Positions 5,457-35,891 are shown, counted from the stretch's first letter. The stretch: 64,000 bases of DNA from Alphaproteobacteria bacterium (GCA_052143835.1 JBKQRV010000067.1:1461-65460), one strand, 5' to 3'. A program made the numbers and translations. Notes: a model not told the origin generated them from the sequence alone.

Positions 5457-5494
5457 GGTCGCGATTCGGAAGCTTGTCTCACCCCGAGATTATC

Positions 5495-5584
5495 GTCATT
5501 GCGAGCGCAGCGAAGCAATCCATGATGCATGGTGCGAAACCCTATCTGGATTGCTTCGTTGCCCTTCGGGCGCCTCGCAATGAC
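5495..5584. repeat. Family C inverted-repeat element (GTCATTGCGAG...CTCGCAATGAC), copy C1
   Basis: 90-bp element with terminal inverted repeats and inner GAAGCAATCC/GGATTGCTTC arms. About 90% identical to the reverse complement of 33496-33585. Confidence 0.85.
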
Positions 5585-5636
5585 ACGTGTTCACCTGATG
5601 TGGTGAGTTTCAGAACCAGGATACTGGGACGCTCTC

Positions 5637-7576: not shown

Positions 7577-8356
7577 TCACCCCCCGAAGCGCCGGCGCAT
7601 CAGCTGTGCCGCCATGCGCACCACGGTCGCGCGCGGCGAGCGTTGCGCAAGCATGGCGCCGAGACGATTCAAGCCGCCCACCACATGCACGTTCTTGCGT
7701 CCGAGAGCGGCAAGCCCCTCGCGCGCGACCCGCTCGGGCGTGGCGAACCCGCGCTGCGAGCCGCGCATGCCGGCGCGCGTGAAAAACGCCGTCTCGGTGC
7801 CGCCGGGACAGAGTGCCAGCACGTCGATCGGCAATCGGCTAAGCTCGCCCGCAAGCGCCTCCGCATAGAAGAGGTCGAACGTCTTGGTGGCGCCGTAGGT
7901 GGCGAGATAAGGGGTGGGCTGAAAGGAGGCCGTGCTGGCGACGATGATGAGGCCGGCGCGGCTTCGCCTTGACGCGGCGCGCTCGAGCATCTGCGGCAGG
8001 AGCGCGCGGGTGAGCATCACCACCGCCACCACATTGACCTCGACCATCTCGCGCTCGCTCTCGGCGGAGTTGTCGATCATGCGGCCGAAGCGCCCCAGGC
8101 CGGCGTTGTTTATTAGGAGGTCGATGGGAAGTGCGGCCGCCGCCGCGAGGAAACAGCGCCGTCCGGCCTCGCTCGCGAGGTCGGCCGCGATCGTCTCGAC
8201 GCGCCGCCCGCCTTGCGCGAGGGGGGCCTTGGCCGCGGCGAGCTTGGCCGCGTCCCGTCCCGTGAGCAAAAGGTTGGTCTGAAGCGGCAGCGCGCGGGCA
8301 AAAGCGGCGCCGATGCCGCTCGTCGCCCCGGTGATCGCAGCGAACGCGTATGCCAT
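7577..8356 (-). CDS. SDR-family short-chain dehydrogenase/reductase
   Basis: 259 aa; ITGATSGIGAAFA, NNAGLG, YGATKTF (YxxxK). Confidence 0.85.
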   Translation of the reverse strand: MAYAFAAITGATSGIGAAFARALPLQTNLLLTGRDAAKLAAAKAPLAQGGRRVETIAADLASEAGRRCFLAAAAALPIDLLINNAGLGRFGRMIDNSAESEREMVEVNVVAVVMLTRALLPQMLERAASRRSRAGLIIVASTASFQPTPYLATYGATKTFDLFYAEALAGELSRLPIDVLALCPGGTETAFFTRAGMRGSQRGFATPERVAREGLAALGRKNVHVVGGLNRLGAMLAQRSPRATVVRMAAQLMRRRFGG

Positions 8357-8524
8357 GGGGAAGATGCCTCCACGAGATGGGAGGGGGAGTATAGCCGTTG
8401 AGGCAAGTCGCGTCCGCGGGCGCTTGTGTGCTCTTGCGGGCTGCCGAGCGTGCGGCTAAGGAGAGGCGCGCGCTTGCCCGAAAGGCGCAGCCGCCTCAGT
8501 GACGCCAACGAAAAGACGGGAAAG

Positions 8525-9733
8525 ATGCCGAAATTGCGAACCCTCGATGATCTCGACGTGCGCGGCAAGCGCGTGCTCGTGCGGGTCGATCTCAACGTCC
8601 CCATGAAGGACGGCAAGCCGAGCGATACGACCCGAATCGACCGGGTGGCGCCGACGATCGACGAGCTCGCGCGCAAGGGCGCACGCGTCATCGTGCTCTC
8701 CCACTTGGGCCGCCCCAAGGGCAAGCCTGAACCCGAGTATTCGCTCGCCCCCTTAGCACCCGCGCTCGAAAAATCCCTCGGCGGACGCAAGGTCGCCTTC
8801 GCGCGCGACTCTGTGGGGCCGGAGGCAAGTGCGGTCGTGGCGAAGCTCGAGGACGGCCAAGTGGCGCTCCTTGAGAACCTGCGCTTCGAGCCGGGCGAGG
8901 AGGCGAACGATGCGAGGTTCGCGCAAGCGCTGGCGGCACTCGGCGAGCTCTATGTGGACGACGCCTTCGCTTGCGCGCATCGCGCCCATGCCTCGGTCGA
9001 GGCTTTGGCACGCCTCCTTCCGGCCGCGGCCGGCCGGCTCATGGAGGCCGAGCTCGGCCACCTCGCCGCCGCGCTCGAGCACCCCGCGCGCCCGCTTTAT
9101 GCCCTCGTCGGCGGCGCCAAGGTCTCGACCAAGTTGGCACTCCTCGGCAATCTCGTCGCCAAGGTCGACTCCCTCATCATCGGCGGCGGCATGGCCAACA
9201 CATTTCTCGCAGCCCTGGGTCGCCAAGTCGGCAAGTCGCTTTACGAGCACGACCTGGCCGAGACCGCCCGCGCCGTTCTCGCTTCCGCGGCGGCGCGCAA
9301 ATGCGCCATCCTTCTGCCCACGGATGCGGTGGTGGCGGTGGGGCTCGAGGCGGGCTCGGCAGCACATGTGGTCGGCATCGAGGCCGTGCCCGCCGGCGAG
9401 ATGATCCTCGATATCGGGCCGCGGACGGCCGCGGCGCTCGCTCGGCATCTCGAGGGCTGCCGCACGCTGGTGTGGAACGGCCCGCTCGGCGCCTTCGAGA
9501 CGCCACCCTTCGATGCCGGCACCAACGTGGTGGCGCGGGCGGCCGCGGCGCTCAGCAAGGCCGGCAAGCTCCTGAGCGTCGCGGGCGGTGGGGATACGCT
9601 CGCAGCCCTCCATCATGCGGGTGTTGCGCAGGACTTCAGCTACGTCTCGACCGCGGGCGGAGCGTTCCTCGAATGGCTCGAGGGCAAGGAGCTGCCCGGC
9701 GTCGCCGCACTCGAGGCCGCCGCCAAGACTTGA
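8525..9733 (+). CDS. pgk: Phosphoglycerate kinase
   Basis: [27 protein letters not shown] start chosen inside track ORF 8426..9733; [19 protein letters not shown]. Confidence 0.95.
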
Positions 9734-32332: not shown

Positions 32333-33394
32333 ATGGCGGGGGCGAAGACCGCTGCCGGGAATTTCTTCGAGGACTTCCGCCTCGGCCAGGAGCTCGCGCA
32401 CGCGACGCCGCGCACGGTAGGTGCCGGCGATGCGGCACTCTATCTGGCGCTTACCGGCACGCGCTTCGCGCTCAACTCCTCGGACGAGTTCGCGCGTGGT
32501 TGCGGGCTGCCGTGCGCGCCGCTCGACGATCTGCTCGCCTTTCACATCATCTTCGGCAAGACCGTGCCCGACATCTCGCTTAACGCGATCGCCAATCTCG
32601 GCTATGCCGACTGCCGCTTCCTCGCCCCCGTCTATCCAGGCGACACGCTCCAGGCGAAGAGCCGCGTGATCGGGCTCAGGGAGAACGCCAACCGGCAAAG
32701 CGGCATCGTCTATGTGCGCTCGACGGGGACGAATGAGAGCGGCGAGACCGTGCTCGAGTACGTGCGCTGGGTCATGGTGCGCAAGCGCGACGAGGCGGCG
32801 CCGGCGCCGGCTGCCTCGGTGCCCACACTTGCCCGCGCGGTGCCGGCGACGGCACTCGCGCTGCCGGCGGGCTTAGCACTCGAGCGCTACGACTTCGCGC
32901 TCGCCGGCTCGCCCTTCGCCTGGGAGGACTATGCGCCGGGCGAGCGCATCGATCACGTCGACGGCGTCACCATCGAGGAGGCCGAGCACATGATGGCGAC
33001 GCGGCTCTACCAGAACACGGCGCGGGTCCACTTCAACCAGCAGGCCCAAGCGGCCGACCGCTTCGGCCGCCGCCTCGTCTACGGCGGACACATCATGAGC
33101 CTCGCGCGCGCGGCGAGCTTCAACGGCCTCGCCAACGCGGTCAAGATCGCCGCCATCAACGGCGGCCGTCACCTTGCCCCGAGCTTCGCCGGCGACACGA
33201 TCTATGCCTGGAGCGAGGTGCTCGAGCGCTGGGAGATCGCAGGCCGGCGCGATCTCGGCGCGCTGCGCCTGCGCACGCTCGCGACCAAGGAGCGGCGCGC
33301 CGGCGATTTTCCCGACAAGGACGCGCAAGGGAAGTTCGACCCCGCGGTCGTGCTCGAGCTCGACTACACGGTGCTGCTCCCGCGGCGCGGCTGA
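32333..33394 (+). CDS. MaoC-family (double hot-dog) enoyl-CoA hydratase/dehydratase
   Basis: 353 aa; FEDFRLGQEL, NLGYADCRFLAPVYPGDTL, second hot-dog YGGHIMSLA..GGRHLAPSFAGDT. Confidence 0.85.
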   Translation: MAGAKTAAGNFFEDFRLGQELAHATPRTVGAGDAALYLALTGTRFALNSSDEFARGCGLPCAPLDDLLAFHIIFGKTVPDISLNAIANLGYADCRFLAPVYPGDTLQAKSRVIGLRENANRQSGIVYVRSTGTNESGETVLEYVRWVMVRKRDEAAPAPAASVPTLARAVPATALALPAGLALERYDFALAGSPFAWEDYAPGERIDHVDGVTIEEAEHMMATRLYQNTARVHFNQQAQAADRFGRRLVYGGHIMSLARAASFNGLANAVKIAAINGGRHLAPSFAGDTIYAWSEVLERWEIAGRRDLGALRLRTLATKERRAGDFPDKDAQGKFDPAVVLELDYTVLLPRRG

Positions 33395-33408
33395 CGGCCG
33401 CAAAGGCT

Positions 33409-33620
33409 TTCACCACGGAGAACACGGAGGTCACGGAGAAGAGGAGGGAGACTTCGTGTCCTCGTTCTTAAATTCACGACATCAGGAAAACACTCGTCAT
33501 TGCGAGGCGCCCGAAGGGCGCCGAAGCAATCCATATGGGGTTTCGCACCAGACGCGCTGGATTGCTTCGCTGCGCTCGCAATGACGGCTACCTGCAGGCG
33601 AGACAGACCCGTGGTGAAAC
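33409..33620. repeat. Family B element (copy B2) split by a nested Family C insertion
   Basis: Left terminus TCACCACGGAGAACACGGAGGTCACGGAG (33409-33437) and right terminus CCCGTGGTGAAACC (33607-33620) match the B1/B3 termini. C2 sits between them. Confidence 0.7.
33496..33585. repeat. Family C inverted-repeat element, copy C2 (inverted relative to C1)
   Basis: GTCATTGCGAGGCGCCCGAAGGGCGCCGAAGCAATCC...GGATTGCTTCGCTGCGCTCGCAATGAC. Confidence 0.85.
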
Positions 33621-33645
33621 CTTCTGCAGCCGCTCGCCTCGGCTT

Positions 33646-33678
33646 CAAAACGAAACGCCGCGGAGGCGCATCCGCGGC
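33646..33678 (-). terminator. Candidate rho-independent terminator (minus strand)
   Basis: Minus strand reads GCCGCGGA-tgcgcc-TCCGCGGC followed by GTTTCGTTTTG. Confidence 0.45.
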
Positions 33679-33696
33679 GCTCGGAGGCGAAGCCCT

Positions 33697-33768
33697 AAAA
33701 TAAAGTGAGGCGTCAGGAGCGTAAGCGAGAACCCACGCTACGTGTCCGGGCGGGACACTCCTGACGCC
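33697..33768 (-). terminator. Y-shaped hairpin element copy T1 plus T-tract, candidate 3' end of module 1
   Basis: 11-bp outer stem GGCGTCAGGAG/CTCCTGACGCC enclosing two inner hairpins (one is TGTCC-gggcg-GGACA). On the minus strand it is followed by TCACTTTATTTT. Confidence 0.4.
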
Positions 33769-34310
33769 TCTGGAGCCGAAGCCCCATGGCTCGTGAGAGC
33801 GACCCGGCTTCCGGCCGTCTCCCTCCTCGGCAACGCCCCCGTGAAGGGACGCCCCGCCGGAGCGAGGAGCCGTACCCCCCTCGCGGGGGATCGCCAGCGA
33901 AAAGCCCACTCGTCGGCCGCGTCCGGTTCCTCCTGTCGCGTCCCTCCTCCCTTGCGGGAGAATTTTCGCGCCTAGGACCGCAAGGCCCCGAAAGGTCTCG
34001 CGGCCCCCCGTGACGGCCCCGATGGCCCGAAGGCCGCCGACGCCGATCCGGGAAAAGAGCCGGCCAACCGGGAGTTTGACCTCCCGCCTGGGGGCGGTGC
34101 TCCGAAGAGTTCCGTCCTCAAGGCCGGGTAGTGCCGCCCCGAAGGGCCGCATCGCCCCGAAGCTTTCGTCCTCTTGCCCGCCGCCCGAAGTCCCGAAGGG
34201 CCTCGGATGGTTCCGCTTGGGCTTACTCGCTTCGACACTCTCTCGTGCCGTCTAAAGCCTATCTCTTTCAAAGGCACGTTCAATGAAAAAGCGGCTTTCC
34301 TTTGAAAATA
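33769..34310 (-). ncRNA. Candidate large structured RNA, module 1 body (unclassified; transcription not shown)
   Basis: No credible ORF. On the minus strand there are 7 CUUCGG in 423 nt and GNRA-capped stems at 33947-33960 (GCAA) and 33876-33889 (GCGA). Further stems at 34024-34035, 34136-34147, 34069-34086 and 34266-34307. Confidence 0.3.
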
Positions 34311-34333
34311 TCTGTGCGTAGATTTGTCAATTG

Positions 34334-34376
34334 CACACAAGGCTTCCACAAATTCTCCACATGTTTATCCACAAAG
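34334..34376. promoter_or_regulatory. Conserved head block P1 with perfect DnaA-box 9-mer TTATCCACA (34365-34373) and one-mismatch box TTCTCCACA (34353-34361)
   Basis: Ungapped alignment to 35219-35259 gives 30/41 identities, including a 12/12 block TTATCCACAAAG. Confidence 0.5.
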
Positions 34377-34424
34377 ACTATTCAGGCAGTCGAGGCCTCA
34401 AAATTCAACGTCTTGTTATTCAGG

Positions 34425-34640
34425 CACTTACGCTGCGCGTCCGCGCGGGCGAGACACTCCGACGCCCCCAAATCTTTCGCCTGAAATGAAGGCGGCGCCG
34501 GGAGCGTAAGCTGCACTTACGCTGCGTGTCCGGGCGGGAGGGTCCCGATGCCCCAAATCTTTCGCCTAATAAGAAGGCGGCGTCGGGAGCGTAAGCTGCA
34601 CTTACGCTGCGTGTCCGGGCGGGACACTCCCGACGCCGCC
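34425..34640. repeat. Tandem array (period 85-89 bp, ~2.5 units) of the Y-shaped hairpin element (T2c partial, T2b, T2a)
   Basis: CACTTACGCTGCG starts at 34425, 34514 and 34599. T2a 34579-34637 has intact arms GGCGTCGGGAG/CTCCCGACGCC; T2b 34494-34552 is degenerate. Confidence 0.85.
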
Positions 34641-35160
34641 GGGGCCTGGGCGGACCCCGTGCTGAAAGGCCTGCGGCCGCACCGCCGTCGACGCGCGCGC
34701 GCCTCAGGGAGAAGCGCGAGCAGCGGCGAAGCTTGAGGGCCGGGCCTGCCCTGGGCGGAGCAGAACCCGAGCCCGCGGCACGTCACCGTCACGCGAACCG
34801 CTCCCGACGGGAACTCGCGCTCGCGCGCGCGCCCCGTCCAAGCGAAGGAAACCGAGACTCCCGGGCGAGGAGGCGGCCCCCCTAGCCGCCCGCCCCCCGG
34901 CATGCCCTTGGGGCGCCGTGGGGCCGGCGTCAGATCCTCGTTCCGGCACGTCGGCACCCTCTTTTGCCTGGGACCGAGCCTTGCGGATCGGCCCACGCGA
35001 GAGGCTGCCCCGCTTTCTTGCGAAAGCGTCGCCGCGTCCGCTGCGGAACCGCGGTCCCACCCCCGAGGCCGCACGAAGGCGGTTCGCTCAAGGTTCTAAG
35101 ATCGGGCTCCGCTGCGGTGACCTCAGCACCGCCAAGTATAGTGCAGAGCGCGTTGTCGGG
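34641..35160 (-). ncRNA. Candidate structured RNA, module 2 body (unclassified; weaker case than module 1)
   Basis: No credible ORF. Minus-strand CGCUUUC-GCAA-GAAAGCG hairpin (35011-35028) and (GC)n runs at 34690-34703 and 34817-34834. No sequence similarity to module 1 body seen by eye. Confidence 0.2.
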
Positions 35161-35195
35161 CGGCAACGAGAAAAACAAATAATGGTCAAAAATCT

Positions 35196-35259
35196 TGTGA
35201 ATAAATCCAGACTTTCCTCACAGGTCCGCAACAAGTTTTCCACTGTCTTATCCACAAAG
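35196..35259. promoter_or_regulatory. Conserved head block P2 with perfect DnaA-box TTATCCACA (35248-35256), inverted one-mismatch box (35196-35204) and adjacent ~74% A+T stretch
   Basis: TGTGAATAA at 35196-35204 is the complement of TTATTCACA. GAAAAACAAATAATGGTCAAAAATCTTGTGAATAAATCC (35170-35208) is the most AT-rich run in this region. Confidence 0.5.
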
Positions 35260-35371
35260 GGCTCAGTTTCGGCAGGCGCGCCGCAGCCAAGGCCCTTGCT
35301 TGTCTTGGATTTGTGCGGGGGAACTTCGGTTGGCGCGTGGCCGCCATGCGCTTTTGCTGCGGCGCGGAAGA

Positions 35372-35400
35372 TTGACTTAGGCGGTGCGGCGGCCTAGAAA
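35372..35400 (+). promoter_or_regulatory. Candidate sigma70-type promoter for sdhCDAB
   Basis: TTGACT (35372-35377), 17-nt spacer, TAGAAA (35395-35400), ~93 nt upstream of the sdhC ATG. Motif match only. Confidence 0.3.
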
Positions 35401-35492
35401 GCTTTCGGACGATCTAGCGGGCGTCCCCTCGCCCGCACGCGACCGGGCGCATCCGTGCTCGGCTCGCCGACCATGCCCATGTAGGCGCGCTC

Positions 35493-35891
35493 ATGACCGC
35501 TCGGAACAGGCCGCTCTCCCCTCATTTGCAGATCTACCGGCCGCAGCTGACCTCGCTGCTCTCGATCACCCATAGGGCGACCGGCATCGCCCTCGTGGCG
35601 GGCGCCTTCCTCCTCGTCTGGTGGATCGCCGCCCTCGTGCGCGGCCCGGCCTCCTTTGCGCTCTTCCAGCACTTCATCGCCTCGTTCCTCGGCCGGCTCC
35701 TTCTCTTCGGCTGGACGTGGGCGCTTTTCTACCATTTGGCCAACGGCATTCGCCATCTCTCGTGGGACGCCGGCTGGGGCTACGAGCTCGAGAGCACCTA
35801 CGCGAGCGGCTGGTTCGTGGTCGCCGCCTCGACGGTCTTGACGCTCGTCGCCTGGTCGATCGGCTACGTCATGCTGGGAGGGCACGGATGA
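35493..35891 (+). CDS. sdhC: Succinate dehydrogenase cytochrome b556 subunit
   Basis: RPLSPHLQIYRPQLTSLLSITHRATG. Confidence 0.95.
   Translation: MTARNRPLSPHLQIYRPQLTSLLSITHRATGIALVAGAFLLVWWIAALVRGPASFALFQHFIASFLGRLLLFGWTWALFYHLANGIRHLSWDAGWGYELESTYASGWFVVAASTVLTLVAWSIGYVMLGGHG

Follow-up and report, generated by a model that had tools for sequence, protein, structure and literature searches.

We analyzed a stretch of DNA of 64,000 nt (the window) from an Alphaproteobacteria bacterium (GCA_052143835.1, JBKQRV010000067.1:1461-65460; ~68% G+C), in particular positions 33769-34310. This segment lies in a gap between two operons, mcl-mch and sdhCDAB, which are co-directional across it (Table 1), and it belongs to the first of two tandem minus-strand modules in the gap. 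Both modules have the same layout. Reading 5' to 3', boxes of the TGTGGA type, resembling binding sites for DnaA, come first and are followed by AT-rich DNA that contains a -35/-10 pair. The body, G+C-rich and 555-570 nt long, is next, and a Y-shaped element of 64 nt and U-rich sequence complete the module. A preliminary description had proposed that the segment specifies a folded minus-strand RNA of ~0.5 kb, and motif density, folding, covariation among homologs and an excess of G.U pairs all support such an RNA, whose expression is predicted. We consider it very probable that module 1 is a structured noncoding RNA (ncRNA) gene on the minus strand. The fuller interpretation, in which a stand-alone gene running from ~34250 to 33696 encodes a large structured ncRNA and 33769-34310 makes up the body of that gene, is the best explanation overall and a likely one.

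The gap is noncoding. No periodicity in G+C content at third codon positions (GC3) was found across 33400-35490, and the flanking genes have a GC3 of ~0.9. None of the long open reading frames (ORFs) that cross the gap has a Pfam match; they are spurious, as is usual for such frames in G+C-rich DNA. ARAGORN found no transfer RNA (tRNA) or tmRNA genes in the window.

Table 1. Features in and around the mch-sdhC gap (window coordinates).
Feature	Position	Strand	Remarks
mcl + mch	left flank, ending 33394	+	malyl-CoA lyase-like; mesaconyl-CoA hydratase
Noncoding gap, 2.1 kb	33395-35492		between mch and sdhC; no codon-position G+C bias
sdhCDAB	right flank, from 35493	+	
Module 1 RNA gene, ~555 nt	33696..34250	-	predicted start ~34249-34252, to U-run after 3' element
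Conserved 5' domain	34117..34252	-	alignment A6, covariance model R1
Central and 3' body	33771..34147	-	tetraloop-capped hairpins
UUCG caps	34136-34147, 34100-34109, 34024-34035, 33986-33995, 33771-33786	-	
GNRA caps	33947-33960, 33876-33889	-	GCAA and GCGA, respectively
Near-invariant hairpin	34069-34086	-	CGGGAG-GUCAAA-CUCCCG
Y-shaped 3' element, 64 nt	33707..33770	-	three-way junction
U-run, then canonical terminator-like hairpin	33641..33706	-	CACUUUAUUUUA; CGCCGCGGA...UCCGCGGCG + UUUCGUUUU
Module 1 promoter, sigma-70 type, predicted	34256..34283	-	-35 TTGAAC 34283-34278, 16-nt spacer, -10 TAGGCT 34261-34256
DnaA-box-like array, module 1	34312..34373	-	sequence match
Box, perfect	34373-34365	RNA sense	TGTGGATAA
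Box	34361-34353	RNA sense	TGTGGAGAA
Box	34350-34342	RNA sense	TGTGGAAGC
Box	34339-34331	RNA sense	TGTGTGCAA
Reversed DnaA-box-like site	34312-34320	opposite to array	
Extra Y copies, tandem, partly degenerate	34494-34555; 34424-34466 (truncated)	-	between module 2 and module 1 promoter
Module 2 RNA gene, ~567 nt, putative paralog	34566..35132	-	same upstream layout; Y element at 34576-34640; diverged body
Module 2 promoter, predicted	35138..35166	-	-10 CACTAT 35143-35138, 17 nt, -35 TTGCCG 35166-35161
Module 2 DnaA-box-like sites	35248-35256; 35196-35204		TTATCCACA; TTATTCACA, opposite orientation
Dispersed repeat, ~130-147 nt	33458-33604; 5494-5621		folds as long branched hairpin

Hairpin content and folding of the segment

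The preliminary description had noted seven plus-strand copies of CCGAAG (CUUCGG in the minus-strand RNA), starting at 33776, 34027, 34102, 34139, 34157, 34185 and 34193. All seven were found again, and CTTCGG did not occur in 33769-34310. Outside the gap, 33395-35492, the window contains 0.54 copies per kb per motif and strand, giving an expectation of 0.29 copies against the seven observed (Poisson probability of at least seven, 2.9e-8). Dinucleotide shuffles of the region contained 0.82 CCGAAG on average, with none of 5000 reaching seven, and the highest count in 542 nt elsewhere in the window was two for CCGAAG and three for CTTCGG. Additional copies of CCGAAG at 33511 and 33521, just outside the segment, come from the dispersed repeat at 33458-33604.

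The quoted hairpins could likewise all be read in the sequence: GGCC-UUCG-GGCC at 34024-34035, GCCC-UUCG-GGGC at 34136-34147, CUCCC-GCAA-GGGAG at 33947-33960, CCCCC-GCGA-GGGGG at 33876-33889, and the CGGGAG/CUCCCG hairpin at 34069-34086. In 551 nt, the minus strand has five UUCG-capped hairpins with stems of at least 3 bp and the plus strand has none, compared to a window background of 0.089 per kb per strand. A 9-bp AT-rich stem (TTTCAAAGG/CCTTTGAAA, 34266-34274 and 34299-34307) is also present, but its assignment to the RNA did not hold: with the start placed near 34250, the stem falls in promoter DNA, upstream of the predicted start and overlapping the predicted -35 hexamer, and it is not conserved in the homologous contigs L090 or L091. 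When compared to shuffled sequences, the minus strand folded at -308.5 kcal/mol (z = -4.74) and the plus strand at -273.4 kcal/mol (z = -4.17), a difference of 35 kcal/mol in favor of the minus strand.

Conserved secondary structure of the module 1 RNA

A homology search followed by a covariation check, as the preliminary description had suggested, yielded 13 metagenomic or metagenome-assembled genome (MAG) sequences homologous to module 1, with 67-96% identity. The alignment of 13 module-1-type sequences (A2, 570 columns) gave an RNAalifold consensus of 185 pairs, in which 95.8% of the cells form standard pairs, compared to 91.6% in shuffled alignments and 42-51% in controls in which the pairing partners were slid. 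Compensatory double changes occurred in 55 of the 185 pairs, versus 19.2 +/- 3.3 in the shuffles (0/500 reached 55) and 9-23 in the slid-partner controls, and the covariation score was 0.252, versus 0.175 and 0.06-0.10, respectively. The UUCG- and GNRA-capped hairpins were among the co-varying helices (7, 8, 10, 13, 14, 16, 18, 20 and 21). The consensus included 354 G.U cells and 30 A.C cells, and the minus strand is therefore the RNA strand. Both compensatory changes above controls and a strand-specific signal, in the G.U cells and in the energy asymmetry, were thus found, as expected generically of a structured ncRNA.

The 5' domain consists of a hairpin (GGCAC-GAGAGA-GUGUC), a CGAAGC/GCUUCG helix around a UUCG-capped hairpin, and a second UUCG hairpin. 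A family-wide alignment of the first ~135 nt (A6; 15 sequences from groups A, C, D and E) conserves the 5' hairpin, the CGAAGC/GCUUCG helix and the enclosed UUCG hairpin, with compensatory changes in 18 of the 27 pairs of the domain. The covariance model built from this alignment (R1) scored the 5' domain of the window at 126.8 bits and recovered every module-1-type and divergent member, as well as a copy on contig L114 on which it had not been trained (E = 5e-12). Neither the rest of the window nor nine control genome loci contained a further match.

RNAalifold also paired the loop of the 5' hairpin, which is rich in purines (GAGAGU), with a stretch of the CUCUC type immediately before the last hairpin (A2 columns 12-17 with 463-468, corresponding to ~34236-34241 with 33785-33790). 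There is some covariation in this pairing (GC to AU at 12-468), and it competes with the local 5' hairpin. The predicted contact may be a long-range one or a pseudoknot that closes the whole RNA.

The Y-shaped 3' element

The preliminary description had pointed to terminator-like tails on the minus strand. An element of this kind is present at the 3' end of the module, but it is not a plain terminator hairpin: instead, it is a nearly invariant three-way junction, in which a 12-bp outer stem (GGCGUCAGGAG.../...CUCCUGACGCC) surrounds two inner hairpins. The first of these, GUGUCC-CGCCC-GGACAC, was unchanged in all sampled members, and the element thus has a constant core of 17 nt, an invariance that is partly built in, as the members were retrieved with a 20-mer covering this hairpin. 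The outer stem showed compensatory changes at five positions across 18 sequences, and such changes were also found in the second hairpin. The fold of the element had a z-score of -7.7. A 48-nt stretch of it is identical between the window and locus L002, a MAG in which the body is 70% identical. Within the window, the 20-mer occurred only at the modules, and it occurred only once in L002. In a family-wide MAFFT alignment of the 3' 230 nt, analyzed with RNAalifold, noise outside the Y element prevented a consensus.

The terminator-like hairpin downstream (33641-33694) lies 30 nt beyond the module 1 Y element, and a terminator scan listed a site at 33669-33655. The true 3' end of the RNA may be at the U-run or at this second, terminator-like hairpin. 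An analogous hairpin (ACCGCGGACGCGGCGACGCGCCCGCGGUUUUCGUUU) was observed in L114.

Predicted promoter and DnaA-box-like sites

In all groups of the family, the 5' hairpin lies at a constant distance after a TTG-containing -35 and an A/T-rich -10 element, with the TTG of the -35 element invariant. Inspection of the alignments by eye revealed no sigma-54 promoter, CtrA boxes, IHF sites or GAAA-tetraloop/11-nt-receptor pair conserved across groups.

Upstream of the promoter of module 1 are four DnaA-box-like sites in a row, spaced 11-12 nt apart. The DnaA box consensus, TTATCCACA, is TGTGGATAA read on the other strand, and the 64 kb contain only two perfect TTATCCACA boxes, one per module. A box with at most one mismatch was found upstream of the RNA in 19/19 representatives, and in 18/19 at -104 to -118 and in the same orientation; 12 of these 18 positioned boxes are perfect. 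In the exception, L092b, the sole box is reversed and lies at -65; several members have a reversed box at -57 to -66 as well. Boxes with at most one mismatch had a density of 7.76 per kb upstream of the RNA, compared to 0.077 per kb in the remainder of these loci, a 100-fold difference. Consensus boxes are thus conserved in position relative to the predicted promoter, as would be expected of a promoter regulated by DnaA. Because the boxes are enriched, fixed in position and the only perfect ones in the window, we lean, if only slightly, toward the view that DnaA binds them and controls transcription of the RNA.

Distribution of the RNA family

Homologs were sought in two scans. Of the 80 loci in the Mch genome scan, only L002, a MAG labeled Alphaproteobacteria, had a related sequence, a single module at the mch / sdhC position that is 70% identical over 500 nt. 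The metagenome scan with the Y-element 20-mer gave 26 loci, two of which were chance matches in coding DNA. By BLAST, five contigs carry full-length module-1 homologs with 94-96% identity, another five, including two near-identical pairs, match at 77-81%, and four match at 70-74%, among which L084 has the same sequence as L002. Nine contigs match only the Y element by BLAST and have the same architecture from box to 3' end by eye and MAFFT. In these nine contigs, which make up the divergent groups (L081/L085/L094, L082/L088, L089 (48-53% G+C in the 5' domain); L093; L095/L101), both the 5' domain and the 3' element recur, together with a TGTGGATAA-type box ~105-118 nt upstream, and their neighboring genes are unrelated. 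L114, which came from a later protein-guided look-up, has both modules in tandem.

The unit of ~555 nt is collinear and conserved from high-GC to ~50%-GC genomes. The consensus of the low-GC group (four sequences) had 184 pairs, 25 of them compensatory, and for L081 only the sense strand folded better than its shuffles (z = -3.59, compared to -0.82 for the antisense strand). RNA lengths in the family range from ~555 to 640 nt, on contigs from peat and soil metagenomes (L090, L097, L100, L104 and L106) to lower-GC, apparently marine-type ones. The members share one plan: the 5' domain is conserved, the hairpin-rich center varies, the Y-shaped 3' element is almost invariant, and the predicted promoter bears a DnaA box. 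Unrelated to the RNA, L081 also has a sub-threshold match to the Rfam cspA thermoregulator at 892-1216 (34 bits, E = 2e-5; gathering score 78).

The arrangement mch / RNA / sdhC was found in the window, L002, L099 and L114. Elsewhere, the neighbors differ by group: an ABC ATPase and SDR, phosphofructokinase and cytochrome P460, cpYpsA and SDR, or UPF0047. Telmatospirillum sp. J64-1, the closest named relative by Mch (73%), has mcl-mch and sdhCDAB separated by 224 nt that contain no copy of the RNA and no DnaA box. Similarly, the RNA is absent at the corresponding spot in Pelagibius and a Kiloniellales MAG, the best labeled relatives of the genes neighboring the low-GC group. Because the neighbors vary and the operons of relatives lack the RNA, it is not a leader, untranslated region (UTR) or antisense RNA of a particular operon. 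The mch-sdhC gap of L114 measures 3.9 kb owing to a gene of 511 aa without a Pfam match (8020-9555, minus strand), located between sdhC and the module-2-type RNA.

A phage or plasmid origin was considered and dropped: the Y 20-mer had no match in viral contigs, and the RNA had no BLASTN match in 72,556 plasmids.

The Rfam 15 library (4227 models, including OLE, ROOL, GOLLD, HEARO, raiA, RNase P, tmRNA, 6S and SRP) had no match in the whole window at gathering thresholds, and at E <= 10 gave only noise in 33000-35800 (at most 22 bits, E >= 1.2). Nothing from Rfam 15 overlapped the RNA in five divergent members. The literature searched contained no described alphaproteobacterial large RNA of this kind and no DnaA-box-driven RNA. 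The family, with no match in Rfam 15 or this literature, is thus previously undescribed.

Module 2 and other features of the gap

Homologs of module 2 were found on five other contigs, with 76-95% identity and always upstream of a module-1-type gene. The module 2 body does not align with that of module 1. Because the R1 model of the 5' domain did not detect module-2-type RNAs, module 2 is called a paralog on its upstream layout, length and 3' element only.

The extra Y copies that follow module 2 in the window are 85 nt apart. Two to four tandem copies after a module-2-type RNA, in varied states of decay, were also found in L083 (1703-1928) and L114 (6985-7290); in L114, the first inner hairpin of the copies contains an insertion, and every copy has a U-run at its end. 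The tandem copies may be a stack of terminators that insulates the downstream promoter, or they may be a sign of easy duplication.

The dispersed repeat between mch and module 1 has perfect 12-bp outer arms (CGTCATTGCGAG/CTCGCAATGACG). Its second copy in the window is inverted and 86% identical, and contig L090 likewise has two copies (1536-1843 region; 8220-8366). The element at 33458-33604 resembles a repetitive extragenic palindrome (REP) or miniature inverted-repeat transposable element (MITE), behaves as a dispersed repeat, and is unrelated to the RNA family.

A promoter-like sequence (TTGACT, 17 nt, TAGAAA) is located at 35373-35401 on the plus strand, ~95 nt upstream of sdhC, and is kept in L002 (TTGACTTGGCGGGAAGCGCGCCCTAGAAC). 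It lies ~120 nt from the DnaA boxes of module 2, which might also influence sdhCDAB. Over the window (1-64000), the cumulative GC skew climbs to a maximum at ~31-33 kb and then drops; the switch point falls at the gap. Over only 64 kb, this is a weak signal, and the G-rich minus-strand RNAs themselves contribute part of it.

Alternative explanations

One alternative is that the segment acts at the level of DNA, with the CCGAAG/CGCCCCGAAG repeats being protein-binding sites or repeats similar to REPs, bacterial interspersed mosaic elements (BIMEs) or MITEs that have no function as RNA. The motif does recur, the hairpin occurs in tandem copies at 34424-34640, and a true dispersed repeat adjoins the module at 33458-33604. 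The covariation largely refutes this explanation, however, as the helices are kept by compensatory changes while the sequence varies, and the asymmetry of 354 G.U to 30 A.C cells would be meaningless in duplex DNA. In addition, the Y 20-mer, restricted to the modules in 64 kb and single in L002, is identical in distant lineages, and the whole 555-nt unit is collinear and conserved across the G+C range described above. The preliminary description had itself offered a repeated protein-binding motif as an alternative; CGCCCCGAAG turned out to be the 3' half of UUCG hairpins with co-varying stems, and we regard a DNA-level element as highly improbable. The chance that the minus strand instead encodes a protein, from an ORF at 33364-34152 (262 aa) or 33972-34349 (125 aa), is negligible: such long stop-free frames exist, as they do everywhere in DNA of 67% G+C, but these had no Pfam match and no GC3 bias, substitutions among the homologs had no period-3 pattern (p = 0.5), indels were mostly of 1-2 nt, and no conserved reading frame was seen.

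The boxes raise the question of a replication-related locus, either oriC, a secondary origin, or a site that titrates or reactivates DnaA, with the RNA being a primer, an R-loop former or a by-product. Phased DnaA-box-like sites in the same orientation, 11-12 nt apart and beside an AT-rich segment, would fit such a locus, as would the G-richness of the RNA (37.7% G versus 31.4% C). Plasmid primer RNAs such as ColE1 RNA II are also of similar length. Boxes and an AT-rich stretch are both present, but the latter contains the conserved predicted promoter of the RNA. Moreover, there are two tandem copies in one gap, the positions across lineages are unrelated, the flanking genes are co-directional rather than divergent, the cumulative GC skew has a terminus-like maximum and not a minimum, albeit weak in a 64-kb window, and neither the plasmid nor the viral collection gave a match. 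The single locus, skew minimum, divergent genes and dnaA/dnaN/hemE/parAB-type neighbors that mark an oriC were not found here. The 500 nt downstream, with helices far from the boxes, are also under selection for pairing as RNA, arguing that the RNA itself is functional, and a replication locus is accordingly an unlikely explanation. Less probable still is that the RNA is a cis-acting or antisense element, such as the mch 3' UTR or terminator region or a divergent regulatory transcript of sdhCDAB. The recurrence of the mch / RNA / sdhC order in four loci (window, L002, L099 and L114) and the ~120 nt that separate the module 2 boxes from the sdhC promoter-like site (TTGACT...TAGAAA at 35373) are in its favor; however, the RNA is on the strand opposite to both operons, other members lie between unrelated genes (ABC ATPase/SDR, PFK/cytochrome P460, cpYpsA/SDR), and Telmatospirillum has the same operons without it.

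Several observations weigh against the interpretation that we prefer, a stand-alone structured RNA gene under DnaA control. The start and end of module 1 are predicted from conserved promoter-like hexamers and hairpins. Because a strict scan for E. coli-type promoters found no site at the module 1 promoter, this promoter is predicted from conservation only. The boxes could serve a protein other than DnaA. The modeled long-range helices of the A2 consensus are less certain than the local hairpins, and the invariant local hairpin at 34069-34086 gives way to long-range pairing in that consensus. The U-run after the Y element is absent in group C members, and the Y element is therefore not simply an intrinsic terminator. 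Covariation support for module 2 is weak: its alignment (A5) has 215 pairs, of which 19 are compensatory, and the RNAalifold covariation term is unfavorable. Finally, the carriers appear to be alphaproteobacteria-like, with the taxonomy of these uncultured organisms taken from MAG labels and the best matches of neighboring proteins.

Comparison with known systems

The OLE (ornate, large, extremophilic) RNA of Bacillota, of ~600 nt, is similar in size to the module 1 RNA, and both have a stand-alone gene and a dense, multi-branched structure supported by covariation; in neither case is the biochemical function obvious from the sequence. OLE works as a ribonucleoprotein (RNP) (PMC12054373), and this is the mode of action that we tentatively favor for the module 1 RNA. 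The differences are that the module 1 RNA has no Rfam match to OLE even at E <= 10 and occurs in a different phylum, that no conserved partner-protein gene lies beside the family, and that OLE is found in an operon, whereas the module 1 RNA has its own predicted promoter and DnaA boxes.

ROOL and GOLLD, both large and ornate, assemble into multimeric cages made of RNA only (PMC12286853). Like them, the module 1 RNA is large and ornate with many capped hairpins, and formation of multimers is conceivable here by analogy. Again, there was no Rfam match, nor did we see a conserved palindromic kissing loop. Association with phages or tRNAs is common for ROOL and GOLLD, whereas the module 1 RNA had no viral-contig match and has no tRNA nearby.

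CcnA, a cell-cycle ncRNA of Caulobacter crescentus, is a small RNA that is controlled by CtrA and base-pairs with mRNAs (PMC8959179). Being an alphaproteobacterial ncRNA whose transcription is linked to a master regulator of the cell cycle or replication, CcnA offers the nearest precedent for the coupling between RNA and DnaA that we propose. The module 1 RNA is three times longer, and its sites are DnaA boxes, not CtrA sites.

DnaA-box promoters and clusters include the sda and dnaA promoters, the B. subtilis DnaA-box clusters and E. coli datA/DARS. These loci, like the predicted one described here, have several closely spaced, helically phased intergenic boxes beside a promoter. They control protein genes, or titrate or reactivate DnaA, and we know of none among them that drives a large structured RNA.

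The Y element shares with intrinsic terminators and REP/BIME elements that it is a G+C-rich inverted repeat, often with U-rich sequence after it, and that it occurs in tandem copies after module 2. It differs from them in being a three-way junction rather than a simple hairpin, and in not being dispersed within the window. Its core is also kept across genomes whose bodies cannot be aligned by BLAST, although retrieval by the 20-mer partly builds in this invariance.

Proposed role and significance

In the mechanism that we propose, the RNA would fold into many short G+C-rich helices, capped by UUCG or GNRA loops and arranged in multi-branched domains, and would end in the Y element and U-rich sequence. 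A sigma-70-type promoter would drive it, with the phased array of DnaA-box-like sites upstream and the perfect TGTGGATAA ~110 nt before the start. Binding of DnaA, which is both the replication initiator and a transcription factor, would set the level of the RNA and thereby couple it to the state of replication or the cell cycle; besides promoter control, the boxes may have a side role in titrating DnaA. The RNA would be stable and trans-acting, with a structural or protein-binding role, and the Y element would serve as a terminator, as protection of the 3' end and, given its invariance, as a recognition site. We suggest only tentatively that the RNA is a scaffold or part of an RNP. More speculative yet is the idea of a new class of ornate RNA wired to DnaA that helps to control replication or the cell cycle, for example by scaffolding an RNP or by feedback regulation of initiation; in this view, the Y element would dock a dedicated partner and the tandem paralogs would have distinct roles.

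Large, intricately folded bacterial RNAs of no known function are rare, and OLE, GOLLD, ROOL and raiA each opened new biochemistry. To our knowledge, a positionally fixed DnaA box before the promoter is unique to the module 1 family among the large ornate RNAs. If control by DnaA is true, the RNA would be the first of the large structured kind to be linked to the machinery of replication initiation, and mutation of the boxes or depletion of DnaA would offer a direct experimental handle on its role. Even if the link to DnaA fails, the family is a ready candidate for Rfam and for structural study.

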